A stretch of DNA of 29,198 nucleotides from a virus (IMGVR_UViG_3300045988_012380:1-29198); one strand, 5' to 3'; shown: positions 1,630 to 23,373, numbered from the stretch's first letter. Notes: a model not told the origin generated them from the letters alone. Made by a program: numbers and translations.

Positions 1630-3090
1630 TTATTTAAATAGTTTCGACACCTTTTTTAATATTTTTAAAATCAAAGCAATAATCTGATTGATTCCATTTA
1701 CATTAATTTTATCGTTTTTTGAATCATTACTTGAATCATCTTTTTTAATTTCTTCTTTTTTTGGATTTGACTTATAAAAATCAATATCGTGATATATCAC
1801 ATTCTTATCCAATGGATTTGATGTATATTGATAAATCACTGCTTTGTCTGAATGGTCAAACTGAAGCGTTCCGTCATTAGAGCCATATTGCGCAATCCAT
1901 AATGGATATTCTGTATCCACATAAGTTCCAATCCATGAAGTAGATGTATACACACCTGTGTAGTATCCTTGTTCCTTAAAATAGTCGCAGAACACTTTAC
2001 AAACCATCGAACAATGTTCTTTAGTAAGTAATCCATTCTTTTCTTTCCATCCTTTTTCGCCTTGCTTAACACTTGAATCTTCCATATCCATCCAAACACC
2101 TAATTGAATATTCTTTCCTTTGATTAATTCATGTGTATATTTAGCTTGCTCTAATGCAGTTTGCTTGCTATCACAATAATCATAACAATACACGCCATAT
2201 GGAATGCCTTTATCTTCTAACATCTTAGAGAATTCGTCGAATTTTTTATCTTTAGTTGTCCACCAATTTGCACGAATAATTGCAAAGTCTACATTGCTTA
2301 AATCTACATTGCTATTGTACTCCGAAAGGTCGATTCCGTATCCTTTGACATTCTTTGTATAATCAACTTTTTCAATCGGTTTTTCTACTGGTTTAGTTTC
2401 TTCTTTAACTTCTGAGAATGTTGCCCACAATTCTTTACCTTGAATTTCAGAATTTGAAATAGCCATAAATTGAGTCTTATCTTTATTTACTACCCATCTA
2501 TGCCCATTTGCAACAACTTTATAGTAATACTCAAATTGAAAGCCTGTATTTACACGTTTGATAACTGCTCCGTTTGGTGAGCTTTGTCTAATTGCTACTG
2601 CGTCAACTGTAAGTGTAGCTAATGCGTGCTCTGATACCAATTTATTGACATCATATGTAGTGTTAGATGTTTGATTCACTAAACATTTAGGTCTAAATCC
2701 TGTATCGTATGTGGCACTGTATGGGAATTTACATAGATTAAATGCTCCTCCTACGCCACCTTGATTTTGACCTAGAAACCAACCATATTTTCCATCAATA
2801 TCAGAATCAAAAATAGCAATATGCGAATATGGTGTAACATTTGGCACTTCTTTGAATACGACAATATCACCGGGTTGATATACAGATACTTCAATACTGT
2901 TTTGTAAGATTCCATTTGTCTTTCTATATATCCAAATATCTTTTGCGTATCCGCTTACTGTACAACTAATTCTTTTGTATCCTAGTTTCTCATACCAATA
3001 CATTGCACCGTCCCAACATTGAGCACTATAATATCCATCAATGTCGAAAGCTTTGCCTAATACGGCTTTTTTAAAATCTTGATAATTTAT
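1630..3090 (-). CDS. Endolysin with CHAP, SH3b-like and GH25 muramidase domains
   Basis: The track ORF is 1630..3144. CHAP motifs are present (YYSAQCWDG Cys and SHIAIFD His). A central SH3b-like stretch is followed by a GH25-like region (GIDLSEYN, AIIRA, LWIAQYG). The start is placed at in-frame ATA 3090-3088, 9 nt after AAGGAGG (3106-3100). The 18 upstream codons carry a TGCTATAAT box and the SD and look non-coding. ATG 3144 is the canonical alternative. Confidence 0.85.
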   Translation of the reverse strand: MNYQDFKKAVLGKAFDIDGYYSAQCWDGAMYWYEKLGYKRISCTVSGYAKDIWIYRKTNGILQNSIEVSVYQPGDIVVFKEVPNVTPYSHIAIFDSDIDGKYGWFLGQNQGGVGGAFNLCKFPYSATYDTGFRPKCLVNQTSNTTYDVNKLVSEHALATLTVDAVAIRQSSPNGAVIKRVNTGFQFEYYYKVVANGHRWVVNKDKTQFMAISNSEIQGKELWATFSEVKEETKPVEKPIEKVDYTKNVKGYGIDLSEYNSNVDLSNVDFAIIRANWWTTKDKKFDEFSKMLEDKGIPYGVYCYDYCDSKQTALEQAKYTHELIKGKNIQLGVWMDMEDSSVKQGEKGWKEKNGLLTKEHCSMVCKVFCDYFKEQGYYTGVYTSTSWIGTYVDTEYPLWIAQYGSNDGTLQFDHSDKAVIYQYTSNPLDKNVIYHDIDFYKSNPKKEEIKKDDSSNDSKNDKINVNGINQIIALILKILKKVSKLFK

Positions 3091-3114
3091 TAAAAAAATC
3101 CTCCTTATATGCCG

Positions 3115-3123
3115 ATTATAGCA
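3115..3123 (-). promoter_or_regulatory. Extended -10 box TGCTATAAT upstream of the endolysin SD
   Basis: The minus strand reads TGC-TATAAT at 3123-3115. There is no good -35. Confidence 0.35.
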
Positions 3124-3140
3124 CATAAAGAGGATATTTA

Positions 3141-3578
3141 TCATTGATATACTGAAAACATTTCTCTTAACTTATCTCTTACCATTTCTCTTTCTTCTTG
3201 AAAGTCGCTAGACGTTTTCATTTCTTCTAAGATTCCATACATAGCACTAAGAAATGCTTCTAATTCACGAATTGAATTTTGTTTATCAATTTCATTGTTA
3301 TCTTTTCGATATTCTTTTTTAGCTTCTATGTATTTCCTAAAATGGCTATTCATCAATGCGATATTATCATCAATTTCCGTTCCTTCAATATCTGTATCAT
3401 TTGTTTTTAATGCATTTATAGCAGTTCTTCCATCACTCATAGCTAGTATTGTATCAATGTCTTTGATATTGTCTAAAGCTTGGCTCATAACTTTAAAATC
3501 TAAATCATTGTATCCTTTTTCTAGTCCTCTCATTGCTTCGGTTAAGAGGTCTAGATTCCTTTTTCTAACCTCTTGCAT
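3141..3578 (-). CDS. Hypothetical all-alpha/coiled-coil protein (145 aa)
   Basis: ORF with ATG start. Its stop overlaps ATG 3144. No recognisable family. Confidence 0.5.
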   Translation of the reverse strand: MQEVRKRNLDLLTEAMRGLEKGYNDLDFKVMSQALDNIKDIDTILAMSDGRTAINALKTNDTDIEGTEIDDNIALMNSHFRKYIEAKKEYRKDNNEIDKQNSIRELEAFLSAMYGILEEMKTSSDFQEEREMVRDKLREMFSVYQ

Positions 3579-3585
3579 GATACAC

Positions 3586-4005
3586 CTACGCTAATTTCTT
3601 AATGATGATATTTGCATTTTGAACAGATAAATCTAAGCCACTGTTATTACCTAAGGTGATTGTGTAAGAAGCTCCACAAGGTACTTGAATCAATGTAGCT
3701 CCACTAACATTTCCATATGCACTTGCGGTAGCTACATTATATAAAGATTGTGTTCCTCCTACTGCTTCTCCATTCTGTTCTAATTCTAAAGAAGCAACTC
3801 CTACTGTTGCACTTGTGATATCTGCCGTATATTCTACTTCATAAATTCCTTGTTTCGTCAACGTAAATAGTCCACTTCCCACATCATGAGCAAGCCAACC
3901 TTTACAAGCACATTGGCATGATTTCGTTCTTACTCTATCCGTTGGAAATAATACATTTTGTCCGTTTGCTACTGTCTGTACTGCCGTTGCTATACTATTA
4001 ATCAT
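3586..4005 (-). CDS. C1q/TNF-like beta-sandwich protein resembling the BclA exosporium C-terminal domain (tentative)
   Basis: SD AGGAGG followed by ATG. The motif order ANGQNVLF..GSGLFTL..GIYEVEY..LELEQNGEAVGG..GATLIQV..ITLGN..ANIIIKKL matches my recollection of BclA-CTD-type domains. No collagen GXX repeats are present. Confidence 0.45.
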   Translation of the reverse strand: MINSIATAVQTVANGQNVLFPTDRVRTKSCQCACKGWLAHDVGSGLFTLTKQGIYEVEYTADITSATVGVASLELEQNGEAVGGTQSLYNVATASAYGNVSGATLIQVPCGASYTITLGNNSGLDLSVQNANIIIKKLA

Positions 4006-4021
4006 TTTTCTTTTCCTCCTA

Positions 4022-4053
4022 TTTAAAATAAATGGGTAGCCTTTCGACTACCC
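4022..4053 (-). terminator. Rho-independent terminator after CDS 4089..4700
   Basis: Minus-strand stem GGGTAGTC/GGCTACCC with a GAAA loop (4053-4034) is followed by ATTTATTTT. Confidence 0.65.
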
Positions 4054-4088
4054 TATAATCCAAAGGCTATTGCCTAATCTCTTTCGAG

Positions 4089-4700: not shown

Positions 4701-4724
4701 TTATATTTCCTCCTTTCAACGCAA

Positions 4725-4934
4725 TTAGCGTTTTAGCCAATATTGACTAGCCACTGATTCAAATTGTTGTTTCTGTTGTGGCGTTAACTGCCCCATCATA
4801 TTATTCAATAATACTTGGGGATTTTGCCCACTCTGCATTAATTGTTGTAATTGATTAAATGCTTGTGGGTTTCTTTGTTGCAACATACCCATCAACATTT
4901 GTTGAGGGTTCATCATATTCATTAAAGGATTCAC
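4725..4934 (-). CDS. Small Gln/Met/Asn-rich low-complexity protein (69 aa)
   Basis: GTG start sits 8 nt after AAAGGAG and forms a GTGA overlap with the upstream stop. Composition is MNPLMNMMNPQQMLMGMLQQRNPQ... Confidence 0.45.
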   Translation of the reverse strand: MNPLMNMMNPQQMLMGMLQQRNPQAFNQLQQLMQSGQNPQVLLNNMMGQLTPQQKQQFESVASQYWLKR

Positions 4935-5356: not shown

Positions 5357-5432
5357 TTTGCTCACCTCTTTACACTCCTAATTATATTCATGTGCAATCT
5401 CAATTTGTTTCCACATTAATGTCAAATAAATG

Positions 5433-5460: not shown

Positions 5461-5725
5461 AATTATCATCTAAAAACGTTTCTTTTTCACTGCTTTTTCT
5501 TGGTGGTAGGACTGCGCTATACTTCTCTACTGTATCATACTTATTCTTAATCTTTTTGATAATTCGATTCACACTAGAAACACTCATGTTTAATCTATCG
5601 GCTTGTTCTCTAACTGTCCATCCGTATATTCTTGTTCTTAAAATCATTTCTTCATCTTTAGTTAATAAAGCTAGATTAATAAATTCTTCAAGAATAATCT
5701 TATTCCAAGGTACTTGATTCGTCAT
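5459..5725 (-). CDS. Small sigma-70 region-4-like / HTH transcription regulator
   Basis: The track ORF is 5459..5746 with a TTG start. ATG 5725 is preferred, but the start is uncertain. The segment LTKDEEMILRTRIYGWTVREQADRLNMSVSSVNRIIKKIKNK looks like a sigma region 4 / LuxR-type HTH. The gene overlaps the 3' end of the holin gene. Confidence 0.5.
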   Translation of the reverse strand: MTNQVPWNKIILEEFINLALLTKDEEMILRTRIYGWTVREQADRLNMSVSSVNRIIKKIKNKYDTVEKYSAVLPPRKSSEKETFLDDN

Positions 5726-6206
5726 TGTCTTGTTCTTCGTTAACAAGTTTATCTGCTACTTCCAAACCTTTAGTTAATGCTTTTGGTACTTTGTAGCCAC
5801 ATTGTAATAAATTCTCCATAACGCTACGAGATTCATTAATACATAGCGAAGCTAACACAAACCAACCTAGCAATGTAGATACATGGAAATTAAGTCCTAG
5901 AATTTCTCCAACTTCTACCAAAAAAGCACTGAACGTGAACGCAACGACAATCATAATCCAATAGCCTAGCTTTTTAAGCACTCCAATCCATCCTTTATTA
6001 CTATTGATTTTATGAGCAATAGCCGACTTCATGCACCCCGTAATGTAGTCAACTACATTCATAAATAAGAAGAATGCGAATAAATACCAATGTTCACCTA
6101 ATACGTATGTTAATACGGCAACGGCTACTCCACCCATTGCATTCATCTTGTCTAGAAAATACATACTTCTTGTTATTTGTTTAAATCCTCCATTGTTCTT
6201 TTCTAT
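5700..6206 (-). CDS. Holin, TcdE/phage_holin_4_1-like
   Basis: The track ORF is 5700..6215. It has about 3-4 TM segments and sits directly after the tail genes. GTG 6215 abuts the SD with no spacer. ATA 6206-6204 lies 8 nt after AAGGAG. A second SD (GGAGG) followed by 10 nt and ATA occurs at 6176-6174. Confidence 0.75.
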   Translation of the reverse strand: MEKNNGGFKQITRSMYFLDKMNAMGGVAVAVLTYVLGEHWYLFAFFLFMNVVDYITGCMKSAIAHKINSNKGWIGVLKKLGYWIMIVVAFTFSAFLVEVGEILGLNFHVSTLLGWFVLASLCINESRSVMENLLQCGYKVPKALTKGLEVADKLVNEEQDNDESSTLE

Positions 6207-6218
6207 TAAATTCACTCC

Positions 6219-7229
6219 TTACATGATTTTTAAATTATCAACCTCTAATTCTAAGGTTCTATATCCACTCTTTCTAACTTCATAAACATTCTTAATTCTA
6301 GCAGTCATTACCAAATTAATTTCTGATATGATTACATCCACTTTATCACCTAAATCGAAATCAACCATATATTCGTATGAATCTGTATTAAGATTGAAAT
6401 TCACATTTTCTTCAATTTGACACTCCGCTAGTTTTTCAATTCCTTTTTGAATCAATACCTTTTTATACTCTTCAAGCGTTGTACCTTCTCCCATACGCTC
6501 AGAGCGTGCGTCTACATACAATTTCTTGATTCTTTCATTCTTATCTTTTCTAGCGTCATATTCAACATAAATACGCTCTTCACCTTGTCCCTCACCACAA
6601 ACGATTACATAATTCTTGTATTTGCTAGAATCAATCATAACGTCCGGTTCTTCAACATTTCCAAATTCGGTTGAGAATGTGACGAAGTTGTTTCCGTCTG
6701 TATTGTTTTGAGTTAAATCACGACCTCGATACAACACAAATGTGAACGTACTTGACACATAGTCATATTCTATGCGAAAAGATAGTTCTAACGGATATAA
6801 CAATTCATAAAGTTTTTTATCAAGGTATGCTCCTGTTTCTTGAAAGTCTACTCTATCAGTTATGGATTCATCATATCTATATTCCATTTTCCATGAACAA
6901 TACTTGTCTAATAACTTCTTGACTACATCAACGATTTTCCCACTACTAGAGAATGTAGGATAAATACAATCATCTGCTAGAATCTTTTCAAAGAATGAGC
7001 CTTTCAACAACATTTGTTTCGTGTTATTTGAAGCCGAATAATGTGGTATATCTACGATTCCTAACTCTTTATCATCAGTAGAATAAATGTATTTAATATT
7101 GCTTGAATACTGTTCTATATCAATATAAATCTCGAAATCTCCTGTCTCATAATATTTCCTGTTCCATTGCACGTTGTAAGGCTCTAAATGTGTAATGATG
7201 TTGAAATCTTTATCTAATCCATAATACAT
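6219..7229 (-). CDS. Tail-associated / baseplate hub protein (Tal N-terminal-like, siphovirus Gp37-like)
   Basis: It follows Dit directly. The assignment rests on size, position and an N-terminus (MYYGLDKDFNIITHLEPY..GDFEIYID) typical of this position. Family assignment is from memory. Confidence 0.6.
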   Translation of the reverse strand: MYYGLDKDFNIITHLEPYNVQWNRKYYETGDFEIYIDIEQYSSNIKYIYSTDDKELGIVDIPHYSASNNTKQMLLKGSFFEKILADDCIYPTFSSSGKIVDVVKKLLDKYCSWKMEYRYDESITDRVDFQETGAYLDKKLYELLYPLELSFRIEYDYVSSTFTFVLYRGRDLTQNNTDGNNFVTFSTEFGNVEEPDVMIDSSKYKNYVIVCGEGQGEERIYVEYDARKDKNERIKKLYVDARSERMGEGTTLEEYKKVLIQKGIEKLAECQIEENVNFNLNTDSYEYMVDFDLGDKVDVIISEINLVMTARIKNVYEVRKSGYRTLELEVDNLKIM

Positions 7230-7230: not shown

Positions 7231-8100
7231 CTATAAACCTAAATACCTTTCATTGTAGTAAACGGTGCAAGATAAATTTGTATCTCCTGTATCTGCTCCA
7301 TATCCGATAGTGTTCTGACCTACATCAATGACCAAATTATTAAATGATGAGGTTCTATCTACTTTATTAATGCAATTTACACCATTCTTACGAATCTTAA
7401 TAGGTTTTGAGACTAAATCAATTTCTAATTTGTCGCCTTTATGCAATGTATCAATTACTCTTACATATTTGTCTTTATTAAATAGCTTTGGATTCTCAAC
7501 ATCTCCATACGCTTCAATAATTGCTCTACAATATGTTTCAGTATCGCCTTTATTCTCAATCTTAACTTCTCTAGCGAAGCTAAATGTTCCGAATTCAACA
7601 CCTTTAGAAGTAATCTCTACATTGAATTGCAAACCACCTTCGATTTGTGCAATATTCTTTGCATAATCATTATATGAAAGCAATAAAGGTTGCGTACATA
7701 AAATTGTGAAGTTTAGCTCTAAATCTCTGTAAATATTGCTTGTAGGAAGGCTATACGCATACAACCTTCCTTGGCAATATTTCTTTTCTCCCATGTACTC
7801 AACAATTACATCAAATAAATGAGAATAGTTGAAGAAACATCTAAGCACTTCTCTTTCATGTGATTTCTCTTCTAGTGTACCTTTAAAGATAGCTTTCACG
7901 CTTCTTTCCTTTGTAGGTATTCTAACACTCATAACTCTAGCACCATTTCCAAATGCGTTATCTTGAGTTGTGTATGAAGGCTCAATGTAATCAAATCCAT
8001 CTAAACCATCACTAGATGGAATTCTCCATCTTTTGTTGTCGATTTCAAATGTTTCACCATCATCCCTACGAACAATGATTCTAACTTTGTTTAAATCTAT
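7231..8100 (-). CDS. Distal tail protein (Dit)
   Basis: The track ORF is 7231..7932. The frame is open and protein-like for 56 more codons upstream with no ATG, GTG or TTG. ATA 8100-8098 lies 9 nt after GGAGG (8114-8110) and overlaps the TMP stop as ATAG. Confidence 0.7.
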   Translation of the reverse strand: MDLNKVRIIVRRDDGETFEIDNKRWRIPSSDGLDGFDYIEPSYTTQDNAFGNGARVMSVRIPTKERSVKAIFKGTLEEKSHEREVLRCFFNYSHLFDVIVEYMGEKKYCQGRLYAYSLPTSNIYRDLELNFTILCTQPLLLSYNDYAKNIAQIEGGLQFNVEITSKGVEFGTFSFAREVKIENKGDTETYCRAIIEAYGDVENPKLFNKDKYVRVIDTLHKGDKLEIDLVSKPIKIRKNGVNCINKVDRTSSFNNLVIDVGQNTIGYGADTGDTNLSCTVYYNERYLGL

Positions 8101-10676
8101 TGAATTGCACCTCCATATCCATATCTTGCTTGTATTCTTAACATCCTAGCGATTTCGTCCGGACTAGATGTTTTAGAATAGAAGTTAATTGTCTGTCCAT
8201 TGTTATTTGTGGTTACACTAGGCATGATTTGAACCATATCTTTAGCTACGGCACGAACCCATGCTTTATTTCTTTCTAATGGTACGACGGCTTCTGCTCC
8301 ATTACCTTCTAACAAACCAATTTGTCCACGCTTCAATACACCACCACGTTCTAGTCTTGGAATCCTTCCAATGTGAACTCCGGGAATCTTATTGATGATA
8401 CTGATAGCACCATTAATACCACCGATAACACCATTAACCATTCCTTTTACACTTCCAACCAATGAACTAACTGCTCCTTCAATTCCACTGAATACACCAC
8501 CTACAAACCCTCTCAGACCGCTCCATGCATTCTGTATTCCTTGTAAAACATTTGAAATCTTACTTCCTACCTTGTCCATCACGCCTTGAACCTTTGACCA
8601 AATGCCGTTGAATACATCTGTAACTGTAGATTTGATATTATTGAAATATTTATTAATATCATCAATAACACCTTTTACCTTATCTCCTACTTTACCCATG
8701 ACTTCTTGAATCTTGCTCCAAATCTTGTTGATAATATCAGAGATTGACTTAAATAAATTTGTTACAAATTCAATGATTGCAGTTACTACTTCACTGACTT
8801 TGCTCCAAATATTCGTTGCTACCGTTAATATTACAGACCAAATATTCGCTACAATTGTAGATATGATTTCTACAATAGGCATAATAAATCCTAGTATAGT
8901 TGCAATAGCCGTTCCAACATATGTGACTACCATACTTATAAACGAAATAATCCCACTTACAACACTTCCTACAACTGTTAGAATAGATGTTATTACAGGA
9001 ATCATTTCAGTTACCACTGAGATTATCTTCTGAATAATTGCTAGAATCGGTGGTCCTACTACTGTTAGAATCTTTTGTGCTTGATTCACAATATTTTGAA
9101 TAACTTCAATAATCTTGCTTAATATATCTTTTGCGATAGGTTCAAGTGCAACTTTCATTTGTTCAATCGCACCTTTTACCTTATCAAAAGCAGGAGCTAA
9201 CACATCAGAAACTTGGCTTGTCAATTTTGTAATTCCACTTGTATCAATCTTACTTAATACACTTGAAATTACATCACCAACTTTAGCAAACCCTTGTTGA
9301 ATACCTTGTATTGCTACTGTAATCAATCCAATGATACCTGCAAGAATAGGGGTAATAAGTTCGCCTATTGGAGTAAATGAATCAAGAAACGCACGTCCTA
9401 AACCACTTAAAGCGTTTTTTAAGCCACCGTTTGCAATTTCTTTTACTTTATCCATTGCACCTTCTACATCTTTATATTTATTCCCTACTGTTGTTAAGGA
9501 CTGAATGAATCCGGCGTTGAAATCTTCTCCCATTGTACCGAAAGCCGTTGCCGTTTTATTCAACTTTTCTTGTTGATTTGTAGTTCTTGAAATATCTTCT
9601 ACAATCGCATTCACAACATCTTTCTGAGTTTTTCTTCCTTCTTGCCATGCCTTGAATACATCTTGCGTCTTTGTATCGAAACTATCTAAAGCTCCTTCGA
9701 TATTTCCATCAACTAACCTTGTGGTAACTTCATTGATTGCGTCGTTAACTTTATCAAGGTTATAAGCTCCACCATCTAAACCATTCTGCATTAATTGGAA
9801 ATATTCATCTGCCGAATATCCTGCTTGTTTGAATTTACCTGCGTATTCTGAAATGTTATCGCCTAATTCATCCGACTTATTCAAGCCATTCTGAGCACCT
9901 GTAGCCATAAGGTCAAACGCTTCTTTAGAAGTAATTCCGAACTGCTTCATTAATTGTTGAGCACCTCTAAGAGTTTCGTTCTCGTCCATGCCGAATGTGT
10001 CTCTTAATGTCAATAAATCCTCAGTAACATTCTTTAGGTCAACATCACTTATGCCTTGCATTTGTTGTTTAACACGTGCCATCATATCGGCAACATCTGA
10101 AATATCTTCGCCAAAATTATTAGACCAAACATCACGAGCAATGTTTTTAAATTTGCTCATTTCATTACTTGAAGCACCTGTCTGAGCTTGAAATTTAGCC
10201 ATAGCGTCATCTAATTCAGTAGCTTGGTTAACACCGGTCTTAATTGCCAGTGCCATTCCACCAACTGCTCCTGCTACGGCAGTGACACCAACGACACCTC
10301 CAACGCCTAAGCCTGTTAATGTTTCTGTGATTGCAGTAGCTTCCGGACTAATGTTCTGAATCTTTCCTAATAGTCCATCAAATCCACCTTGAATTGACTC
10401 TAATGCACTACTTCCAATTTGCTTAAATACATCAAATTTTGAACCTGTTTCTTGCGTTTCTGTTTGTGTATTCTTTTGCTCTTCGTTTAAATCTTTAAGT
10501 TTTTCTTTAATTTTTGGCGGTGCTTTTGAACCATCAGAACCTAACTTGTCGATTGCTTTTGAAGTGTCTTTGATAGCATTTGTTGCTTCACTTGATACAA
10601 CTTTTACCGATTTAATACCATTCTCTAGACCACTTGTGTCTATCTTTGTATCAAACTTTAATGTTCCATCTGATAT
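8097..10676 (-). CDS. Tail tape measure protein
   Basis: The track ORF is 8097..10256. Another 140 in-frame codons upstream (KFDTKIDTSGLENGIKS.., Gly-rich TM-like GVGGVVGVTAVAGAVGG) contain no ATG, GTG or TTG. I checked this triplet by triplet. The first sense codon after the in-frame TGA is ATA 10676-10674, 11 nt after GGAGG (10692-10688). Confidence 0.85.
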   Translation of the reverse strand: MSDGTLKFDTKIDTSGLENGIKSVKVVSSEATNAIKDTSKAIDKLGSDGSKAPPKIKEKLKDLNEEQKNTQTETQETGSKFDVFKQIGSSALESIQGGFDGLLGKIQNISPEATAITETLTGLGVGGVVGVTAVAGAVGGMALAIKTGVNQATELDDAMAKFQAQTGASSNEMSKFKNIARDVWSNNFGEDISDVADMMARVKQQMQGISDVDLKNVTEDLLTLRDTFGMDENETLRGAQQLMKQFGITSKEAFDLMATGAQNGLNKSDELGDNISEYAGKFKQAGYSADEYFQLMQNGLDGGAYNLDKVNDAINEVTTRLVDGNIEGALDSFDTKTQDVFKAWQEGRKTQKDVVNAIVEDISRTTNQQEKLNKTATAFGTMGEDFNAGFIQSLTTVGNKYKDVEGAMDKVKEIANGGLKNALSGLGRAFLDSFTPIGELITPILAGIIGLITVAIQGIQQGFAKVGDVISSVLSKIDTSGITKLTSQVSDVLAPAFDKVKGAIEQMKVALEPIAKDILSKIIEVIQNIVNQAQKILTVVGPPILAIIQKIISVVTEMIPVITSILTVVGSVVSGIISFISMVVTYVGTAIATILGFIMPIVEIISTIVANIWSVILTVATNIWSKVSEVVTAIIEFVTNLFKSISDIINKIWSKIQEVMGKVGDKVKGVIDDINKYFNNIKSTVTDVFNGIWSKVQGVMDKVGSKISNVLQGIQNAWSGLRGFVGGVFSGIEGAVSSLVGSVKGMVNGVIGGINGAISIINKIPGVHIGRIPRLERGGVLKRGQIGLLEGNGAEAVVPLERNKAWVRAVAKDMVQIMPSVTTNNNGQTINFYSKTSSPDEIARMLRIQARYGYGGAIQ

Positions 10677-11637: not shown

Positions 11638-12141
11638 TTATACTTCTGATGTGCCTTCTGTAAATGTTACTGTTCCATCTGTAACCTTTGCAATACCTAC
11701 ACGAATGTCGCTCGCAAAGTTAATGTTGAAGTTGATTTTTGAATCAACACCACTCAATGTATCGAAAATCAATTTAGCGTCAACTTCCCACGCTTTATAT
11801 CCTTTTGTTTTATCTCCGTCAAACATGAATACAAGTAAAGCTTTTGTGTTTACTTCTTCATTGTCCGGAACGGATTTCATCATCTTTTCATAAATGTATT
11901 CGAAATCATCTTCACCTTTAATCATTGTCAAATCTTGCGCAATTTGAGGTGAATAGCTCTTTAACGATTCTGTAGGATTCTTATCTGCGATAAAGTCATA
12001 TGTTTCAGTTTCACTGTTAAATGCAATATCCAAAGTTGTAGACTTCTTGATACGCTTATAACCTGTTCCCATTTCCAAGAACAATCCAATCATATACTTC
12101 TTGACTGTTTGTCCTACGCTTACTTCTGTTCCTTGTGTTAT
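11638..12141 (-). CDS. Major tail (tube) protein
   Basis: The track ORF is 11638..12093. The frame is open for 16 more codons. ATA 12141-12139 lies 8 nt after AAAGGAG and overlaps the upstream TAA as TAATA. ATG 12093 has no convincing SD. Confidence 0.65.
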   Translation of the reverse strand: MTQGTEVSVGQTVKKYMIGLFLEMGTGYKRIKKSTTLDIAFNSETETYDFIADKNPTESLKSYSPQIAQDLTMIKGEDDFEYIYEKMMKSVPDNEEVNTKALLVFMFDGDKTKGYKAWEVDAKLIFDTLSGVDSKINFNINFASDIRVGIAKVTDGTVTFTEGTSEV

Positions 12142-12560
12142 TAATTAAGCTCCTTTCTGTATTTAATTTGAATAGTCAATGCATATACTGCTTGACTATC
12201 CTCATTTGTGTATAAATATAAACCACTTGAAACGGAAACGTCATCACAATATTTGTTTCCGTCTAGTTGTGGTAATTCTCCTTTTAAATTCTTTTCGTCA
12301 ATCCATTCTCCTAATTCTTCTAAGAAGGAGTTGTTATCTTGCCTTTCGGCTTCGATTTGTGTATTCCTACGTGCTAGAAACGTGTAGTATTCAGTACGCA
12401 TTTGAGAGCCGTCAATGTATGTATCTACAATTGCGTTAGGCTCTTTATACAACGCATAAGAGATAGCTTGTTGCGCTAAAACATCCGTTTCAATACGTTC
12501 ATCTATCTGTATATTTCCATAGCCATATAACCATTGAATCAATGCTTTTGATACTGTCAT
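12141..12560 (-). CDS. Tail terminator / head-tail joining protein
   Basis: Called by position in the connector block. GGAGG is followed by 6 nt and ATG, with an ATGA overlap. Confidence 0.5.
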   Translation of the reverse strand: MTVSKALIQWLYGYGNIQIDERIETDVLAQQAISYALYKEPNAIVDTYIDGSQMRTEYYTFLARRNTQIEAERQDNNSFLEELGEWIDEKNLKGELPQLDGNKYCDDVSVSSGLYLYTNEDSQAVYALTIQIKYRKELN

Positions 12561-12919
12561 TCACTACCTCCTATCATTTGTTGTGCTTTCTTCAAGATTG
12601 TTTCTGCTCCGCCATTTCGCATAGCTTTTTCAAACCAATGGTCTGTTTTGCCACCAACGAAATGAGCATTCTCTTTGTTGTAATACCAACGCCGAGCATA
12701 TGGAGCACTTGGTCCACCTTGCTTTACTAATCCACTGCCAATTTGAGTGTTTCTTGTAGCCGAGTTGATTAATGCTCCTGTGTCTCTAGGCGTATAAGGG
12801 GACATAAGCCTAATGACTTCAGAATCAATCATTTGTTGAACTCGTCCACGTTCTTCAAGTCCTCTTGATTGTTTAATTTGGGGAATTGATTCAACATCAA
12901 GTTTGACTTTCATTCCTAT
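12557..12919 (-). CDS. HK97 gp10-like tail completion protein
   Basis: The track ORF is 12557..12991, and its N-terminal 24 aa overlap the upstream gene. The motif PYTPRDTGALINS is typical of the gp10 family. ATA 12919-12917 lies 10 nt after GGGAGG and overlaps the upstream TAG as ATAG. ATG 12913, two codons later, is the canonical alternative. Confidence 0.6.
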   Translation of the reverse strand: MGMKVKLDVESIPQIKQSRGLEERGRVQQMIDSEVIRLMSPYTPRDTGALINSATRNTQIGSGLVKQGGPSAPYARRWYYNKENAHFVGGKTDHWFEKAMRNGGAETILKKAQQMIGGSE

Positions 12920-13698: not shown

Positions 13699-13800
13699 CT
13701 ATTTTTCATTTTGAGGTTTAGCTTCCTCTTTTGTTTTAGGTTTTCCTTTTTTAGGTTTTTCAACTTTAGAAGGATAACCCCAACCGATTTCCGTTGCCAT
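13699..13800 (-). CDS. Micro-ORF, 33-aa Lys/Pro-rich peptide
   Basis: Not in the track. Its ATG 13800 overlaps the capsid stop as TAATG. The peptide is MATEIGWGYPSKVEKPKKGKPKTKEEAKPQNEK. There is no clear SD. Confidence 0.3.
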   Translation of the reverse strand: MATEIGWGYPSKVEKPKKGKPKTKEEAKPQNEK

Positions 13801-14669
13801 TACTTAGCACTAGCAGATAAGTAAATACCTGCTACCTTATTTGCGTATACATCAACGATTCCATACTTACGATATTTCAATACATCTGAATCTGATTCAA
13901 TGTTATTGCTTGCAGGAATTACATTTGAAACGGTGTGTTTATCCCATTTCATTACGGCAGGTTTATGAACAATCAAGAAGTTGATTACGTGTCCATCTTC
14001 TGCCTTTTCGTATCCGCCATCTAACTCTGTATCTTTTCCACTCAACAATTTGATTTTTGTATAGAAACGACTAGCAGGTACAGGAACAACTTTTGCGAAT
14101 CCTTGTAAAGCTTCACGAGATTTGTATGTATCTAATGCCTTAACGCCATTTAATAATGTAGGTGTAGCATACAAGATACGTTGTTCGCTAGGAACTTCAT
14201 CTTCATCCATTTTAGTAGTTGCCGTTAATAATGCGCTCAAGAACTCTTCTGAATTTGTATAATCTTCGGCAACTGTTGTGATTCCTGTTGTTCCGGCAAT
14301 TTTAGCAAATGTATAAGCGTCTGCTTCCGGTGCTACCTTTGTACGCATTAATTCTGCTCCTGCCATACCGAACGCAATATTCATTGATTCGGCATTGTCT
14401 TGTGTATCAACTGAGATTTTAGTTCCTCTATCATAGTCGAATGTAGCAGTTTTCCATTCTAACTTAACTGAGTTACCTGTATAACCACTATTTCTATCAT
14501 AGTTTCCTAAACCTTTGACTGAAATTTGTGGATAGATGATTTCTTTTGCGTTTGCTCCTGCTCGTACCATTGTAGCGTCTGCGTTTAAATCACCTGTTAC
14601 TGAAGCTAACTTATACACCTCATCTAGATTTGAGACATACGTTTTAGCTAATGCAATTTGATTTGGTAT
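13800..14669 (-). CDS. Major capsid protein
   Basis: The track ORF is 13800..14618 with a GTG start and no SD. It follows the scaffold gene. The frame is open for 17 more codons (IPNQIALAKTYVSNLDEV..). ATA 14669-14667 lies 9 nt after AAGGAGG (14685-14679) and is the second sense codon after the in-frame TAA. Confidence 0.85.
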   Translation of the reverse strand: MPNQIALAKTYVSNLDEVYKLASVTGDLNADATMVRAGANAKEIIYPQISVKGLGNYDRNSGYTGNSVKLEWKTATFDYDRGTKISVDTQDNAESMNIAFGMAGAELMRTKVAPEADAYTFAKIAGTTGITTVAEDYTNSEEFLSALLTATTKMDEDEVPSEQRILYATPTLLNGVKALDTYKSREALQGFAKVVPVPASRFYTKIKLLSGKDTELDGGYEKAEDGHVINFLIVHKPAVMKWDKHTVSNVIPASNNIESDSDVLKYRKYGIVDVYANKVAGIYLSASAK

Positions 14670-16619: not shown

Positions 16620-18137
16620 CTAATCCCAATATCCTAACGCTACACCTCTACTATATATACAATTTGCCATTGCGATATAGCCATAGTCATTCAAGTGCAC
16701 ACCGTCTGTTTTTAATTGTGGTGGTATTGCTCCTATTGACATAGCTTCATTATCTTCTTGTGTAGGTGTTAGATTACTATCTAATAATCCATATTTAGAT
16801 ATATATTCTCTTGCGTTCACAAAATGGTTAGAAAACCTTGACGCTAATATGATTTCTTCGACATTTTTATCATTTGCATTACCTGTTGGTATTCCGACAA
16901 CAATATATCTTTCAGAACCATTATGCTCAACCATCCTTTGAATGATATCAGCTAACGCTTCCGGTCTGCTCGTTTGTGCTGCCCAACCGTTTTGCCCTAT
17001 GCAAATAATAGCCACATGACCTACTCCTTCTCCCTCTGCGAAAGCAATAGTTGGTCTGCTATATTCTTTGCCTAAAAGTGAACCATCTGCACAAACTAAA
17101 TTCAAAGAACCGCCGTCACCTCTTCTAAACATCCACTTATCTCTTCCGTTTAGATAAACATTACCATTCCCATGATATTTGCCCGAATACGACATTGTTT
17201 CTAATGACGCACCATTAATACTTTTTATTGTTACTTTATTATAGTCACTAGCATTTGCACCCGCTGTAAACGGAAGCACAATAGCCCCCATGCCACCTTG
17301 CCGGAAAGCTATTACTTCTGCGGTTTCAGAACCTTGCCCGTAGTTATTAACAACAAATTGTTCTCCAATTAACTCCTGGAGTTTTTTTGGATACGGATAA
17401 TTTGTTGCACCTGCACCTTGCGTTAATGAATCCCCCCAACAATCTATAATTGTATAATTCGTTGATGCTCGTTCAATTTTTCCTTTCACATCATTTGACA
17501 AATTATCCCATGTTATCGCTTCTGGTTTTATTTCGATTTTTGATATAAAGTTTGTTTGTTCTTCTGATTCAACTAATACTTTTATATCGTCACTGGTCTG
17601 AGCAACAAATAATTTTATGCACTGGCAATTAAATGTATTTGTTTCAGGTATTTGATTATTGAAATATAATTGCACACCAACTTTTCCGCTTTTTTCAGCT
17701 ATAAAATTATAACATATTGAGAATTCACTATTATTTTTTATAGCTCTTAAAGGAGCACTCTTCCAACCGCCTGCATCCACAGCATATATCATTCTTGCAT
17801 ATACATAACCTTGAACCCAGTTTATTAAATTTGTGATTTTAAATTTCACATAGATGAAATATGGTTTTCCTTCTTCGACATCAATATAATTTTCATTTAC
17901 ATAAACAGTACCATTACCATTATTAATATTCACATCTTGAATATTCGTATTGATATTAAACAAATTCGTGTATTTTGTTCTTATATCATTTAAATCTTCC
18001 TTCAGTTGACCAACTCCTAGTGCTTCATCTAACTGTTGAACAGTACCTTTTTTAGTTCCGCTTGTATCTTCTATAATCATTATATCTTCTTTTTTTATGC
18101 CGTTTGAACTAGGCAATTCTTCTATCTTTAATCCTAT
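16620..18137 (-). CDS. Fibre/spike-type protein with a C-terminal SGNH (GDSL) esterase domain
   Basis: The track ORF is 16620..18116 with a TTG start. It has a GDSL block (IIDCWGDSLTQGAG) and a C-terminal DGVHLN (DxxH) block. ATA 18137-18135 lies 7 nt after GGAGG (18149-18145) and is the second codon after the upstream TAG. Confidence 0.7.
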   Translation of the reverse strand: MGLKIEELPSSNGIKKEDIMIIEDTSGTKKGTVQQLDEALGVGQLKEDLNDIRTKYTNLFNINTNIQDVNINNGNGTVYVNENYIDVEEGKPYFIYVKFKITNLINWVQGYVYARMIYAVDAGGWKSAPLRAIKNNSEFSICYNFIAEKSGKVGVQLYFNNQIPETNTFNCQCIKLFVAQTSDDIKVLVESEEQTNFISKIEIKPEAITWDNLSNDVKGKIERASTNYTIIDCWGDSLTQGAGATNYPYPKKLQELIGEQFVVNNYGQGSETAEVIAFRQGGMGAIVLPFTAGANASDYNKVTIKSINGASLETMSYSGKYHGNGNVYLNGRDKWMFRRGDGGSLNLVCADGSLLGKEYSRPTIAFAEGEGVGHVAIICIGQNGWAAQTSRPEALADIIQRMVEHNGSERYIVVGIPTGNANDKNVEEIILASRFSNHFVNAREYISKYGLLDSNLTPTQEDNEAMSIGAIPPQLKTDGVHLNDYGYIAMANCIYSRGVALGYWD

Positions 18138-18140
18138 TTG

Positions 18141-19529: not shown

Positions 19530-19532
19530 AAA

Positions 19533-20294
19533 CTACACCTCTAACTGAAAGTAGAAATATCCGGCAGGACAAGTTTCTAAAGTTGGTACATCTGTACCTA
19601 TCTTGTATTTAATTTCCTGCTTTGCTTTTAGCTCTGATTGTTCTTTTTCCAAATCTTGAATCATTAAAAGAAGCTTTCCTCCTTCTCCTTCTCCAAGAAC
19701 ATCTTTAACAACTGCGAACCAATCATCCCATGCCTTTTGATTCTCTTGTATAGCTTTCGCATATTCTTTTTTCGCTTCTGCGATTGCTTCTGCAAATTGA
19801 TTAAAGAATTGTGTTGTATCTATTTGCTTGATTGCATTTGTAACAACTCCACATCTACTTGAATCTAATCTCGTATCAGTAATATCTGAGCCTTTAATTT
19901 CTGTTGAGTTACCTTGTGCCTTTACAGTTGCTAGAACTAAATCATATATAGAATCTGTTCTAGTGATTGATTCACTAGCTACTACACTAATATTTCTATA
20001 AGAGTCATTGTCGTTTAATCTCAATACAATGTTATAAGTCTTTGTGGAGCTAGAGCTTGATAATGTGATGGTTTCGTCATCTTTCTGCCAATAGAAAGCA
20101 CCATTAATATTTGCTCTTCCTGCTTTTACTGTAAGCGTTAATCCTTGAGCTTTCTCAACTCTCAAATGGTCTGAACTAGAATCATCTACGAACACGCCAT
20201 TTGTAAAGTAGCTTGAGAATAATCTTCTGAAAGCGTCATATAATACTAATCTATCACCATTTCTTGAGACGAATGGAAAATATGTAGTTGCTAT
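19533..20294 (-). CDS. Fibre/receptor-binding-type structural protein (conserved N-terminal ..DR..LYDAF..F..YFTNGVF motif)
   Basis: The track ORF is 19533..20195 with a GTG start. The frame is open for 33 more codons with no ATG, GTG or TTG, and it encodes the motif-bearing N-terminus. ATA 20294-20292 lies 10 nt after AGGAGG (20310-20305) and overlaps the portal TAG as ATAG. Confidence 0.55.
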   Translation of the reverse strand: MATTYFPFVSRNGDRLVLYDAFRRLFSSYFTNGVFVDDSSSDHLRVEKAQGLTLTVKAGRANINGAFYWQKDDETITLSSSSSTKTYNIVLRLNDNDSYRNISVVASESITRTDSIYDLVLATVKAQGNSTEIKGSDITDTRLDSSRCGVVTNAIKQIDTTQFFNQFAEAIAEAKKEYAKAIQENQKAWDDWFAVVKDVLGEGEGGKLLLMIQDLEKEQSELKAKQEIKYKIGTDVPTLETCPAGYFYFQLEV

Positions 20295-21694
20295 TCTTCT
20301 TCATCCTCCTCTCCATCATCTTGAATTTCTTCATTTAATAACTCCGTAGCTTCTTCTTCAGTGAATCCGTATTGTTTCATGAAGTACATAATCTTTAATC
20401 TTGGAATATCAAATGTTAATGCGTCATTTCTTAACGCTTGTGCCGTGCTTTGCTTATCCTCGATATATGTATCATCATAATCAATTGCGATGTCTAATGA
20501 ATTGATATTAAGCTTTCTGCCTTGCGTTAATTCATAGAAGTATGCTATTGCTTGAATAATATCTTGAATATATGCAGTAGACTCTTTACGTTGTGAATTT
20601 ACTTCCTTCATAGCGTCTTGATTCTCACCGATATATTCTGTTGCCGTTACGATTCTTCCACTTTCAAATGTGTATTTCTTTGTACCGAATCCAAACATCA
20701 TAGATAAGATACTTAATGCGGTTTCTAGTGATTGCACAACTTCTGCCATTCTAACTGTTGGATTGTATTCCTGCCATAAAGCTTTTTCTTCCGGTAATTT
20801 GTCTCTACCTAATTGCACGAAAATATTCTTTAATTGTGGATTCTGTTTAACTTTTCCATCTTTGTCTTTTTGCATTAATGCTTCATTCACAAGAACGATT
20901 TTGTCAGATTTCAACAAATCTCGATTCCACATTGTCATTGTTAGGTCAATTGTTTTTAGTGGAGCAATTGCACTCCAAATCTTCGGTAATCCGTACCCTT
21001 GCATTTGCAAGTTGTTGACCTTTGCATTTCTCATAATTGCAAATGGCTTAACCACATCTAATTGAACAATTTGAGCACGGTCTTTTATCTCTTCGCCTGT
21101 TTCTTTAAAGTAATGTGTTTCTGCAATATATCTTTCGTCTTGTCCTTTTAAGAACATTACCATCACATATACTTTTTTTAGTTTCTCGTAATTTACTCCA
21201 ACGAATGCCACTTCCACAATTTCATCATTAATAACAGTTAGTGGAAGGATATTCATGGAATCACAATAGTTGATTCTGATTTCTCCTCCACTGAATGTAC
21301 CATCTTCATAAATCTCGGCATTCGATACCGTTACATAAGCACCTACAGTACCATTTGCAGACATTTGCTCAACCTGTTTCCTGTACATAACATCAAATCT
21401 ATTCTTTGTTAGAATATCTGAAATAATGTCATTTGTGACGCTATCCTCTGTAGCGTTTATATCTAGGATTTCAATAAGGTTTGCGTCATCCTCACATAAA
21501 CGCTTAGCAAAGTCTGTTTTATCAAGCGTGTATTCCTCATTGTTCAAGGTGTATGCCGTATGAAATTCTGTTTCGGTATTTGTATACCATTTGTTGCACA
21601 ATTCAATAATCTCAATTGCGTTTGTGTCAACATAATACCCTCTATCGTTTAGGTAATTCTGAAACCACGGTCTGCGTGTGTTAGATGTTTCTAT
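20291..21694 (-). CDS. Portal protein (SPP1 Gp6-like)
   Basis: The track ORF is 20291..21601 with a TTG start and no SD. It follows TerL and has an acidic C-terminus. The frame is open for 31 more codons (..RRPWFQNYLNDRGYYVDTNAIEIIEL..) with no canonical start. ATA 21694-21692 lies 6 nt after AAGGAGG (21707-21701). Confidence 0.85.
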   Translation of the reverse strand: METSNTRRPWFQNYLNDRGYYVDTNAIEIIELCNKWYTNTETEFHTAYTLNNEEYTLDKTDFAKRLCEDDANLIEILDINATEDSVTNDIISDILTKNRFDVMYRKQVEQMSANGTVGAYVTVSNAEIYEDGTFSGGEIRINYCDSMNILPLTVINDEIVEVAFVGVNYEKLKKVYVMVMFLKGQDERYIAETHYFKETGEEIKDRAQIVQLDVVKPFAIMRNAKVNNLQMQGYGLPKIWSAIAPLKTIDLTMTMWNRDLLKSDKIVLVNEALMQKDKDGKVKQNPQLKNIFVQLGRDKLPEEKALWQEYNPTVRMAEVVQSLETALSILSMMFGFGTKKYTFESGRIVTATEYIGENQDAMKEVNSQRKESTAYIQDIIQAIAYFYELTQGRKLNINSLDIAIDYDDTYIEDKQSTAQALRNDALTFDIPRLKIMYFMKQYGFTEEEATELLNEEIQDDGEEDEEE

Positions 21695-21697
21695 TTC

Positions 21698-23035
21698 TTA
21701 CCTCCTTAAATCTATATATCCACTATGGGTTATAAATGTATAGCAGAACGAATCCCAATCATCATTAATATTGTTTACGTTCTCATCTTTTGGGATGTCT
21801 TCCTTTTCATCCCATACTAATTCGCTCAATGCGTTTATCAAATTCTTACAATGTTCTTCTATCTTTAGCCTTCCTGTAACAAGTAAGCTATCAACTGTTA
21901 TAGGACGGTCTGTAAGCTCATTCTTTTTGACCGGTGCAATTATACTTCCGTCTAATCCTTCGGCGTAAAAATAAGCTCTAAGCGTGTTTATCAACGTATT
22001 AGAAGCACTGTCCGGAAATATCCACTCGATATATCCATAGCTTTCAATACAACGCTTATAGAACCTTACAAATGCTTTGCAAAACTTTGTTGCGTCTATT
22101 GCATTTGACTTTGCCATATCTCCTTCATCGAGCACCCACATATAATCCCAATCATTTGTAAATCCTGTTAAGTGCCACGAATATTTCGAGCCATTGTCTC
22201 CAAAGTCAACGCCTATGATTAAATGACTGAACCTTTTTCCTTGCTCCTTCATCTTCTCTTTTAAACGTTGATATTTGAATAGGTAAGGTTTGCAGTCATT
22301 AGCGAAATAAGGGAACACAAGTCCTTCAGCAACCATTCTTTCACCTAGAATATCTCTCTTGTACCATACAGAGTTTCTATCATATTTACTTTGAATTTCT
22401 TCGATTCTTTCTTGGCTCATTGTGGCATTGTCAAATATATTGAAATGCTCATACCTATACCAATCAAATCCCATGAATTTATCTATGTAATTCTTATAGA
22501 TGTCTGCATTTGGGTTTGATGGGTTTAAATCCCATAATGTAAATGGATGTGCGCTTGCAATCTGTCTTGCCATAGCTACCTTGATAAAGCTTGTTCTAGA
22601 ATCCTCACAATCGTAATGCTCATTTATTTCGGTAGCTATCCATCCACCATATGAGTTACCTAATATGCTCTTATATGAATCAGACTTTCCACCACCTGTA
22701 AATATCACTATCTTTTCGCCTGTCTTTGTTTGAACAAATAGTGCTTCGTTTGATTTGTATTTACCCCAACGACACCGCCCACGAAAGATATGCTCTAAGC
22801 CGAAACCATTGCAATCGCCTATATTTAATTTCGCATTCGGTAAGCTTGACCCACTCGCTAAATGTATTTTATCTTCACATGTTTCCAAATACATTGAAAA
22901 GATTATGCAGTGGTCAATCGTCTTGCCACTTCGTACCGCTCCTTCTGCTACACTTTGTTTGTAATTTAGGGCGGTCTTAATATAGTTCTTATGCTTATCT
23001 GAAAATTTCCCCCAAGGAATCGTTCTAGTCATCAT
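21698..23035 (-). CDS. terL: Terminase large subunit
   Basis: Walker A-like GAVRSGKT is present. Size and position fit. ATG start with an ATGA overlap on the TerS stop. Confidence 0.9.
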   Translation of the reverse strand: MMTRTIPWGKFSDKHKNYIKTALNYKQSVAEGAVRSGKTIDHCIIFSMYLETCEDKIHLASGSSLPNAKLNIGDCNGFGLEHIFRGRCRWGKYKSNEALFVQTKTGEKIVIFTGGGKSDSYKSILGNSYGGWIATEINEHYDCEDSRTSFIKVAMARQIASAHPFTLWDLNPSNPNADIYKNYIDKFMGFDWYRYEHFNIFDNATMSQERIEEIQSKYDRNSVWYKRDILGERMVAEGLVFPYFANDCKPYLFKYQRLKEKMKEQGKRFSHLIIGVDFGDNGSKYSWHLTGFTNDWDYMWVLDEGDMAKSNAIDATKFCKAFVRFYKRCIESYGYIEWIFPDSASNTLINTLRAYFYAEGLDGSIIAPVKKNELTDRPITVDSLLVTGRLKIEEHCKNLINALSELVWDEKEDIPKDENVNNINDDWDSFCYTFITHSGYIDLRR

Positions 23036-23373
23036 TTTAATAAATCTGCCAAAGGTGTTAAGTCCTCAATCTCATGTGTCATTGTTTGCTCAACCTTTTC
23101 GGTCTGTCCAAGCATTTGTTTACCTAACCAAATAAGCATGGTCGTATTCCCTTTTGAAGCTTTGTCAAATTGCATACGTCTTAAACTTCTTTTTGAGTGG
23201 CTTATACCTCTTTTATATGTCTGACAAAACTTTTTATTTCTTAATAATGTTCTTACTGAACATCCTAGGAAATCTGCAATTTCTTCTTGAGTACATCCAA
23301 TAGAAGCAAGCTTTTCAACTGCTTCATAATCAATCTTTATTCTTGGACGTCCTCCTGCGTGTTTCTCTGCTAT
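23032..23373 (-). CDS. terS: Terminase small subunit (HTH)
   Basis: The track ORF is 23032..23397. The sequence GGRPRIKIDYEAVEKLASIGCTQEEIADFLGCSVRTL is typical of TerS. ATG 23397 has no SD and overlaps a 49-aa ORF. ATA 23373-23371 lies 7 nt after AGGGGG and 1 nt after that ORF's stop. Confidence 0.75.
   Translation of the reverse strand: MAEKHAGGRPRIKIDYEAVEKLASIGCTQEEIADFLGCSVRTLLRNKKFCQTYKRGISHSKRSLRRMQFDKASKGNTTMLIWLGKQMLGQTEKVEQTMTHEIEDLTPLADLLK

Follow-up and report, generated by a model that had tools for sequence, protein, structure and literature searches.

A putative phage-encoded initiator tRNA(UAU) and a matching set of ATA start codons in a phage late region

The viral stretch IMGVR_UViG_3300045988_012380 (29,198 nucleotides (nt), called here the window) contains eleven genes that appear to start at the codon ATA, each behind a strong Shine-Dalgarno (SD) sequence. 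It also contains, just upstream of the packaging genes, a tRNA gene with the anticodon UAU and a body of the initiator type. In our reading, to which we assign a probability of about 0.75, the two form a private, orthogonal initiation system in which the phage-encoded tRNA would read starts of the form AAUA. The first-pass annotation of this DNA had proposed true ATA initiation far beyond sporadic near-cognate use and had missed its likely cause, the initiator-type tRNA(UAU). The proposal that the ATA codons are real starts is supported by the alignment of the capsid ATA with Met1 of homologues, by the reach of matches to PHROG profiles, by the conservation of ATA, and by its recurrence in the same genes of clades whose portal proteins are 54-61% identical.

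ATA start codons in the packaging-to-lysis genes

The window has a GC content of about 33% and every gene lies on the minus strand, to which all window coordinates given below refer. Its late region follows a siphovirus-type order: small and large terminase subunits (TerS and TerL), portal, head proteins, scaffold, major capsid, connectors, tube, tape measure protein (TMP), distal tail protein (Dit), tail proteins, holin, and an endolysin with CHAP and GH25 domains. The early/middle region sits upstream of it. A map of 42 genes comprises 29 ATG, 11 ATA and two GTG starts; all 42 are free of internal stops under table 11, no stop codon being read as sense, and all eleven ATA starts fall in the packaging-to-lysis region.

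The position of the ATA in the major capsid gene (13800..14669; ATA 14669-14667; SD AAGGAGG, spacer 9) corresponds, column for column, to Met1 of its homologues. From the first column on, the N-terminus 'IPNQIALAKTYV' lines up with 'MPNNI.LAKNY' of the homologues, and the product read from the ATA, 'IPNQIALAKTYVSNLDEVYK', can be aligned from that column with homologues of 289-293 amino acids (aa) beginning 'MPNNI.LAKNY...LDEVYK'; positions 3-294 of the phrog_422 profile match residues 3-288. In the portal protein, the 31 N-terminal codons before the first canonical start codon ('...YLNDRGYYVDTNAIEIIELCNKWYTNTE') are conserved protein in full-length homologues. The PHROG alignments begin at residue 3 in the capsid and head proteins, 5 in the CHAP endolysin, 7 in TMP, 11 in the tube, 22 in the portal and 25 in Dit, in all these genes upstream of the first downstream canonical codon. 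An alignment with homologues had been put forward as a check in the first-pass annotation, and the N-terminal extensions are indeed conserved (capsid and portal; PHROG matches reaching residues 3-25).

Public gene calls miss these N-termini because gene callers do not allow ATA. The capsid proteins of the closest relatives (P0001-P0003) are recorded with 275 or 256 aa instead of 289, and the portal proteins of close relatives with 436 (P0121) or 365 aa (P0123) instead of 467. Current gene callers thus shorten these proteins systematically in public databases: N-terminally shortened clusters for capsid and portal are P0001-P0003, P0121, P0123, P0152 and P0156, and two of them hold 1,224 (P0001) and 1,406 (P0121) member sequences.

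Nine of the eleven sites are strong (portal, head protein, SGNH, capsid, tube, TMP, Dit, endolysin, and holin) and two are weaker (TerS and gp10-like). The portal gene (20291..21694; ATA 21694-21692) has the SD AAGGAGGT at a spacer of 5-6, and its ATA is the second codon after an in-frame stop. The head protein that follows (phrog_1220, formerly labelled fibre-like; 19533..20294; ATA 20294-20292; SD AGGAGG, spacer 10) overlaps the portal stop as ATAG; it matches its PHROG family from residue 3, while its first canonical codon comes only at codon 33. The SGNH/GDSL-domain tail protein (16620..18137) starts at ATA 18137-18135 behind GGAGGT, with a spacer of 6-7. The tail tube gene (11638..12141; ATA 12141-12139; SD AAAGGAG, spacer 8) overlaps the upstream stop as TAATA, and its product matches phrog_3099 from residue 11, its first ATG being at codon 16. 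In TMP (8097..10676; ATA 10676-10674; SD AAGGAGGT, spacer 9-11) the ATA is the first codon after the stop, the next canonical codon lies 140 codons further on, and PHROG tape-measure profiles align from residue 7. Dit (7231..8100; ATA 8100-8098; SD GGAGGTG, spacer 7-9) overlaps the TMP stop as ATAG, matches phrog_33 from residue 25 and has its first ATG at codon 56.

The two lysis genes complete the strong sites. The holin (5700..6206; ATA 6206-6204; SD AAGGAG, spacer 8) matches Phage_holin_4_1 over residues 31-151. A second ATA with its own SD lies inside this reading frame at 6176-6174, 10 codons past the proposed start (GGAGG, spacer 10, preceded by A), and the two codons could represent a dual-start holin/antiholin arrangement. 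The CHAP and GH25 endolysin (1630..3090; ATA 3090-3088; SD AAGGAGG, spacer 9) has its CHAP domain from residue 18 and matches phrog_8781 from residue 5; ATG codons upstream of the ATA, at 3144 and 3126, have no SD. Of the weaker sites, TerS (23032..23373; ATA 23373-23371; SD AGGGGG, spacer 7) is so classed because an ATG without SD is found at 23397, 8 codons upstream of the ATA; its phrog_309 match spans residues 12-103. The gp10-like head-tail gene (12557..12919; ATA 12919-12917; SD GGGAGGT, spacer 9-10), which overlaps the upstream stop as ATAG, is weaker because an ATG occurs 2 codons downstream of the ATA. The ATAG overlaps (20294, 12919, and 8100) and the TAATA (12141) are analogues of the ATGA and TAATG coupling of ordinary phage operons.

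The eleven ATA codons, with the SD motifs and spacers listed in the first-pass annotation, were all found again. Re-measurement gave the same distances from ATA to the first in-frame ATG, GTG or TTG (140 codons in TMP, 56 in Dit, 33 in the head protein, 31 in portal, 17 in capsid and 16 in tube), and these downstream canonical codons have no SD. The listed positions relative to the stop hold as well: at most one sense codon separates the in-frame stop from the ATA in portal, SGNH, capsid, tube and TMP, and two do so in the head protein.

The sites stand out when counted by rule. Triplets were scored if they lay 5-11 nt after an SD 5-mer and no more than 30 codons from the upstream in-frame stop, with an open frame of at least 100 codons. 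Within the window, 14 ATG, 12 ATA, two ATT and no ATC triplets follow this rule. ATA is also an internal codon, with 143 occurrences that make up 21% of isoleucine codons, and only 4 of these 143 in-frame internal codons (2.8%) have such an SD.

Conservation was followed in 38 IMG/VR loci with portal genes at least 95% identical and in 34 human-gut metagenome contigs, counting distinct contexts of 153 nt at 75-100% identity. The ATA and the A that precedes it are unchanged at seven sites: TerS (22 distinct relatives), portal (46), head protein (47), capsid (28), gp10-like (29), tube (29) and TMP (20). ATG and GTG starts likewise remain ATG and GTG. An ordinary ATA located 11 codons into TerS (23340) served as a control within these sequences, of which 14 have ATA and 8 have GTA at that codon. 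At the SGNH site, five distinct relatives have ATA and one (L117, at about 13348) has ATG at exactly that codon, which is a natural start-codon swap and indicates that ATA and ATG are interchangeable at that site; L117 still has the tRNA. The holin and endolysin sites had no covering relatives among the retrieved sequences. The earlier description of the affected genes as late holds for all eleven window sites and not for all relatives: the window-clade locus L001 has strong SD-led ATA codons in early-region genes at 6785 and 1403 on the minus strand, which encode an HTH_36 protein and a 195-aa protein of unknown function.

The tRNA(UAU) gene and its association with ATA starts

The only tRNA gene of the window (25848..25923) is on the coding strand and was called as tRNA(tat) by ARAGORN; the Rfam tRNA model scores it at 49.1 bits and flags pair 1:72 as non-canonical, and the Rfam scan of the window gave no match other than this tRNA. 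Its anticodon loop is CUUAUUA, with anticodon UAU and U at position 37. Moreover, it has an A1xA72 mismatch, G2:C71, C3:G70, A11:U24, A73 and an encoded CCA end. A purine 11 paired with a pyrimidine 24, here A11:U24, is an initiator-specific feature. The 1x72 mismatch together with G2:C71 and C3:G70 constitutes the determinants of the formyltransferase Fmt and of initiators (PMC5389676). The resemblance to the initiator tRNAfMet extends to the variable loop (AGGUC), the D arm and the anticodon arm. In all 5,426 complete Escherichia coli genomes the best BLAST match is annotated as tRNA-Met, and the median genome has four such places. One of these matches, examined in detail, lies between mltA and amiC in the metZWV cluster, the operon of the initiator tRNA (77.9% over 75 nt).

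The tRNA is found in every window-clade relative with enough upstream DNA. Among 10 distinct variants, 99.5% of cloverleaf cells are paired and 12 of 20 pairs show compensatory double changes, a fit that beats all 500 shuffles and all slid controls. The 1x72 mismatch, G2:C71, C3:G70, G10:C25, A11:U24, G30:C40, the loop CUUAUUA (with U37) and the terminal ACCA are unchanged throughout. Position 1x72 is AxA in nine variants and the canonical C1xA72 in L094; pair 29:41 is G:C in four and A:U in six, and pair 31:39 is U.G in nine and C:G in one. None of the features of an elongator tRNA-Ile(UAU), namely a paired 1:72, a pyrimidine 11 with a purine 24, and a purine 37, is present, these positions being AxA, A11:U24 and U37. 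The CAU anticodon and methionine identity of bacterial initiators are absent as well, the anticodon being UAU in all members of the family.

Two diverged loci carry the same tRNA(UAU) directly upstream of TerS. In one of them, the ENA scaffold L094 (portal 61% identical), SD-led ATA starts are found in portal, capsid and tube. L093, with a portal 54% identical, belongs to the isolate genome Amedibacillus sp. YH-ame6 (Erysipelotrichaceae; GCA_053848845.1, contig JBSPEZ010000008.1); its ATA starts are in TerS, portal, capsid, tube and TMP, and the set of genes it carries fits a prophage. The public gene calls of both loci are gapped or shortened exactly at the ATA sites, with a Dit of 209 aa in each behind a gap of 220 nt. 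ATA starts are also present in L099-type loci. In the early region of L093, an RtcB RNA ligase is encoded at 1235-2419; this enzyme possibly serves in tRNA repair and hints that tRNA damage matters in this phage-host pair.

The capsid relatives L096-L098, whose capsids start at Met, have contiguous gene calls, no initiator-type tRNA and no convincing SD-led ATA start. L096, with a Met-start capsid 66% identical, encodes at 3362-3436 an elongator-type tRNA-Ile(UAU) (G1.U72, U11:A24, and A37) in the same spot upstream of TerS, and has no ATA starts. This indicates that ATA starts do not accompany the UAU anticodon by itself and go instead with the initiator-type body. The slot upstream of TerS looks like a hotspot for tRNA genes.

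The nucleotide before the start codon provides a further link between tRNA and mRNA. A precedes all eleven ATA starts of the window. Across all tRNA-carrying loci, with contexts collapsed by the first three downstream codons, A(-1) is found in 62 of 67 SD+ATA contexts and in 106 of 197 SD+ATG contexts (Fisher p = 1.3e-9); the five SD+ATA contexts without A(-1) resemble internal false positives. General A-richness does not account for the excess at -1, since A is less frequent at -2 and -3 in front of ATA than in front of ATG. Position 37 of tRNAs is almost always a purine. In this family it is U, which makes the tRNA sequence 5'-U34 A35 U36 U37-3' complementary to 5'-A(-1) A U A-3' of the mRNA. 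In E. coli, pairing of tRNAfMet position 37 with mRNA position -1 has been shown on about 45,000 mRNA variants, including an A37U initiator (PMC10018350). The data suggest an AAUA:UAUU quadruplet, and a U37:A(-1) pair would account for the unusual U37 as well as for the A before every ATA start.

The tRNA gene is probably its own transcription unit, starting at or near tRNA position 1, because terminator-like hairpins bracket it (25924-25965 and 25746-25764; 7820-7860 in L093) and a GATAAT box lies 6-7 nt before its 5' end in the window and in L093. A promoter scan around the gene performed no better than shuffles, and only the flanking hairpins stood out.

Other tRNAs of related form also occur. 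Sister tRNAs with the same D-arm and T-loop UGCAA that have CAU and A37 instead fall into two groups, one with U1:A72 (L058, L068, L071, L082, and L091) and another with G1xA72 (L057 and L092); two of the carrier viral contigs are about 190 kb long. These may be phage-encoded initiator or methionine tRNAs akin to the one from which the UAU form arose. An fMet-like tRNA(UAU) with A37 occurs at 9633-9709 of L005, a different viral contig of 62 kb, with no clear ATA starts within the 9.7 kb examined. Similar genes are found in L009 (6399-6472), L010 (6067-6136) and L012 (4492-4568), and their non-viral carriers include a metagenome-assembled genome of Gemmatimonadales (beside tRNA-Met), Kapaibacterium and an Arsenophonus endosymbiont. 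These A37 forms may be working AUA initiators or copies in decay.

With regard to the neighbourhood and host, a gene with a GTG start at 23517-24824, between the tRNA gene and TerS, encodes a 435-aa radical SAM protein that matches the PA0069, Rv2578c and 'mobile pair protein B' families (spore-photoproduct-lyase-like) and has no sequence match in PDB. It is present in 14 relatives and absent from L093 and L094, and is therefore probably an accessory gene rather than a part of the initiation system. The idea that it acts as an Elp3-like modifier of U34 was rejected on the same grounds of family and distribution. It adjoins a gene at 24874-25455 whose product has a ParB N-terminal domain (phrog_620). 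A megablast of 14 kb of the window against 50,697 phage records gave no match; capsid homologues were found in human-gut phages. A host search by scanning genome contigs for an initiator-like UAU stem-loop gave no window-clade prophage, only unrelated bacterial tRNA genes, and the host clue comes instead from the portal homologue in Amedibacillus.

Proposed mechanism and competing explanations

According to the proposed mechanism, the phage gene would derive from a bacterial initiator tRNA by a change of the anticodon from CAU to UAU and of position 37 from A to U. A host synthetase would charge the tRNA, most likely with isoleucine and possibly with methionine. The anticodon is the main identity element for both the isoleucyl- and the methionyl-tRNA synthetase (IleRS and MetRS), and isoleucine is likelier because MetRS depends on C34. 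The host Fmt would then formylate it, as its determinants (the 1x72 mismatch, G2:C71, C3:G70, and A11:U24) are retained. IF2 would place it in the P site of the 30S subunit, which the strong SD would position over the ATA, and pairing over four bases would add an A:U pair that strengthens a weak helix made entirely of A and U. In this way, 11 genes of the window would start by means of the phage tRNA and the remaining 31 (ATG or GTG) by means of the host initiator. Expression, charging, formylation, use in the P site and quadruplet pairing are all steps that we infer from nucleotide sequence.

In its widest form, which we hold with somewhat less assurance than the core proposal and still consider probable, this would mean that in temperate phages of gut Erysipelotrichaceae the start of virion and lysis genes has been reassigned to AUA (as AAUA), read by a formylatable UAUU initiator that probably carries (formyl-)isoleucine, the genes being translatable only with the phage tRNA. 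Three purposes are candidates. The dependence of virion and lysis proteins on a phage product may act as a lock on timing or lysogeny; in this context, holin and endolysin are both ATA-started and L093 is an apparent prophage. The system may also provide independence from host control of, or attack on, tRNAfMet. Finally, with the tRNA already in existence, AT mutation pressure may have worked as a neutral ratchet. That the choice falls stably on the same genes across clades speaks for selection.

Several points weigh against the private system. Three anticodon-stem G:C pairs mark initiators, with natural au/GC/gu exceptions that have G31:U39 (PMC5389676). The phage family does not have consecutive G:C pairs at 29:41, 30:40 and 31:39, being GC/GC/U.G in the window and AU/GC/U.G in the majority variant, and it shows U31.G39 where the natural exceptions have G31:U39. 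The window-clade tRNA has a bulged T-stem (U, C or a shifted base); G occupies position 55 in its T-loop UGCAAAU, and its D-loop AGUAGUA lacks the GG pair. The sister variants of L099-type and L094 have canonical T and D arms, so these oddities are derived and not defining. The 18/19-55/56 tertiary contacts of the window-clade tRNA may have co-changed. In addition, the A(-1) statistic counts related sequences and not independent events, and phages with CAU sister tRNAs have no convincing ATA starts, a result of low power since few SD-led genes were available. The last point is the behaviour of the normal initiator. At AUA it works at 1-2% of AUG in E. coli (10.1101/063800), but reaches about 10-30% in Staphylococcus aureus with extended SDs, as in infC, ccpN and citZ (PMC13009471), so the host initiator could contribute here.

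This leads to the explanation that best survives besides the private system, and that we regard as unlikely: the ATA codons would be real starts read near-cognately by the host fMet-tRNAfMet(CAU) through strong SDs, thereby attenuating or tuning expression, and the phage tRNA would be an extra ATA decoder or irrelevant. It draws on the S. aureus genes just mentioned, on the strong SD at every ATA site, on the use of ATA as an internal codon (143 codons, 21% of isoleucine), and on the related phage in which the corresponding genomic position holds an ordinary tRNA-Ile(UAU) of the elongator type. However, that same phage is without ATA starts, and the 1x72 mismatch and A11:U24 of the window tRNA are initiator features that disfavour its use with EF-Tu. 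Attenuation is also implausible for genes that include the most abundantly needed proteins (capsid, tube, and portal). Furthermore, U37 of the tRNA and A(-1) of the mRNA covary specifically in ATA-start phages, and tRNA and ATA starts occur together in three diverged clades. The host initiator may add a background, but is unlikely to be the sole reader for a capsid gene.

Two other explanations are very improbable. In the first, translation starts at the downstream ATG, GTG or TTG and the stretch between ATA and that codon is untranslated, as the automatic public calls would have it (P0001-P0003, P0121, and P0123). This view is already largely refuted, given that the downstream codons have no SD, that the skipped regions are conserved protein aligning to homologues and PHROG profiles, that TMP would lose 140 codons, and that the homologues of Met-start phages begin exactly at the ATA position. 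In the second, termination is coupled to reinitiation with no true start codon, ribosomes resuming at a nearby ATA whatever tRNA matches it. The ATAG overlaps at 20294, 12919 and 8100, the TAATA at 12141 and the 0-2 codons between in-frame stop and ATA elsewhere fit such coupling, but the ATAs of endolysin, holin and TerS are not adjacent to the stop of an upstream gene, every site has its own strong SD, and strict conservation of ATA, with ATG at one site, points to codon-specific recognition.

An artefact of sequencing, assembly or base modification in which ATA stands for ATG is next to impossible: in its favour, every change would be from G to A on the coding strand and within AATA, but dozens of contigs assembled independently (IMG/VR, ENA, Logan, and an NCBI isolate genome) show the same ATA codons, ATG starts remain ATG in all relatives, and AATG is not depleted in the window (307 observed versus 282 expected), which excludes a motif-specific base-calling error. 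Motif-specific error or base modification was rejected for these reasons.

Comparison with known systems

The phage tRNA shares with the bacterial tRNAfMet (metZWV and metY in E. coli) the 1:72 mismatch, G2:C71, C3:G70, A11:U24, the AGGUC loop, A73-CCA and G30:C40, and is 78% identical to metZ. It differs from it by being phage-encoded and in having UAU instead of CAU, U37 instead of A37, U.G at 31:39 and, in most variants, A:U at 29:41, and it probably does not carry methionine. Elongator tRNA-Ile(UAU), known from Mycoplasma mobile and from a tilS suppressor of Bacillus subtilis, also reads AUA with a UAU anticodon. Those elongators, in contrast to the phage tRNA, have a paired 1:72, Y11:R24 and a purine 37, as in L096. 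Mitochondria also start at AUA, with a single C34-modified tRNAMet that serves AUG and AUA and no dedicated initiator.

Initiators with changed anticodons have been made in the laboratory. Mutants of tRNAfMet made in the 1990s reportedly initiated at the matching non-AUG codons. In engineered systems (an amber initiator, i-tRNA-AAC, and phage biocontainment) an initiator scaffold with a changed anticodon starts at the matching codon behind an SD, and essential phage genes can be made dependent on it (10.1101/2024.07.29.605542; 10.64898/2025.12.21.695813; 10.1101/2021.05.25.445580). Whereas these are laboratory constructs, the phage case is natural and conserved in diverged gut phages, with a matched U37 and A(-1). 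The engineered A37U variant favours a complementary -1 nucleotide (PMC10018350), while here U37:A(-1) would be naturally fixed along with a new anticodon, if the pairing read from the sequences is correct.

Near-cognate attenuation starts (infC, and ccpN and citZ of S. aureus; PMC13009471) are similar in that an AUA stands behind an extended SD in a host of the Bacillota. Nonetheless, those systems involve few regulatory genes read inefficiently by the normal tRNAfMet, and the phage uses ATA in 11 of 42 genes, capsid, portal, tube and TMP included, together with a dedicated tRNA. There is also a resemblance to the gut phages that recode stop codons (PMC10879173; PMC11210395), in which a phage tRNA changes the decoding of structural and lysis genes and gene callers mis-annotate them. 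As in recoding of that type, the phage tRNA here is cognate to the reassigned codon and the ATA starts are concentrated in packaging-to-lysis genes. The difference is that it is initiation that would be reassigned, by an initiator-type tRNA and with no in-frame stops.

Searches of full-text literature, subscription-only literature being outside their scope, yielded no account of a natural initiator tRNA(UAU) in phages or of phages that use ATA starts systematically. The parts of the system are known: initiator determinants, engineered anticodon-mutant initiators, 37/-1 pairing and stop recoding driven by phage tRNAs. What would be new as a natural phenomenon, as far as we could find, is their combination, in which an initiator tRNA dedicated to a non-AUG codon is accompanied by a set of start codons that match it. 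If true, this would be the first such natural case found so far, a code reassignment at the initiation end that complements the stop-codon recoding known in gut phages, and a ready-made orthogonal initiation part for synthetic biology. It also raises testable questions: whether bacterial ribosomes and IF3 accept an all-A/U codon-anticodon pair with a fourth U37:A(-1) pair, whether Fmt and then the deformylase handle isoleucine, and whether private start codons keep lysis and virion genes locked or protect from host attack on tRNAfMet.

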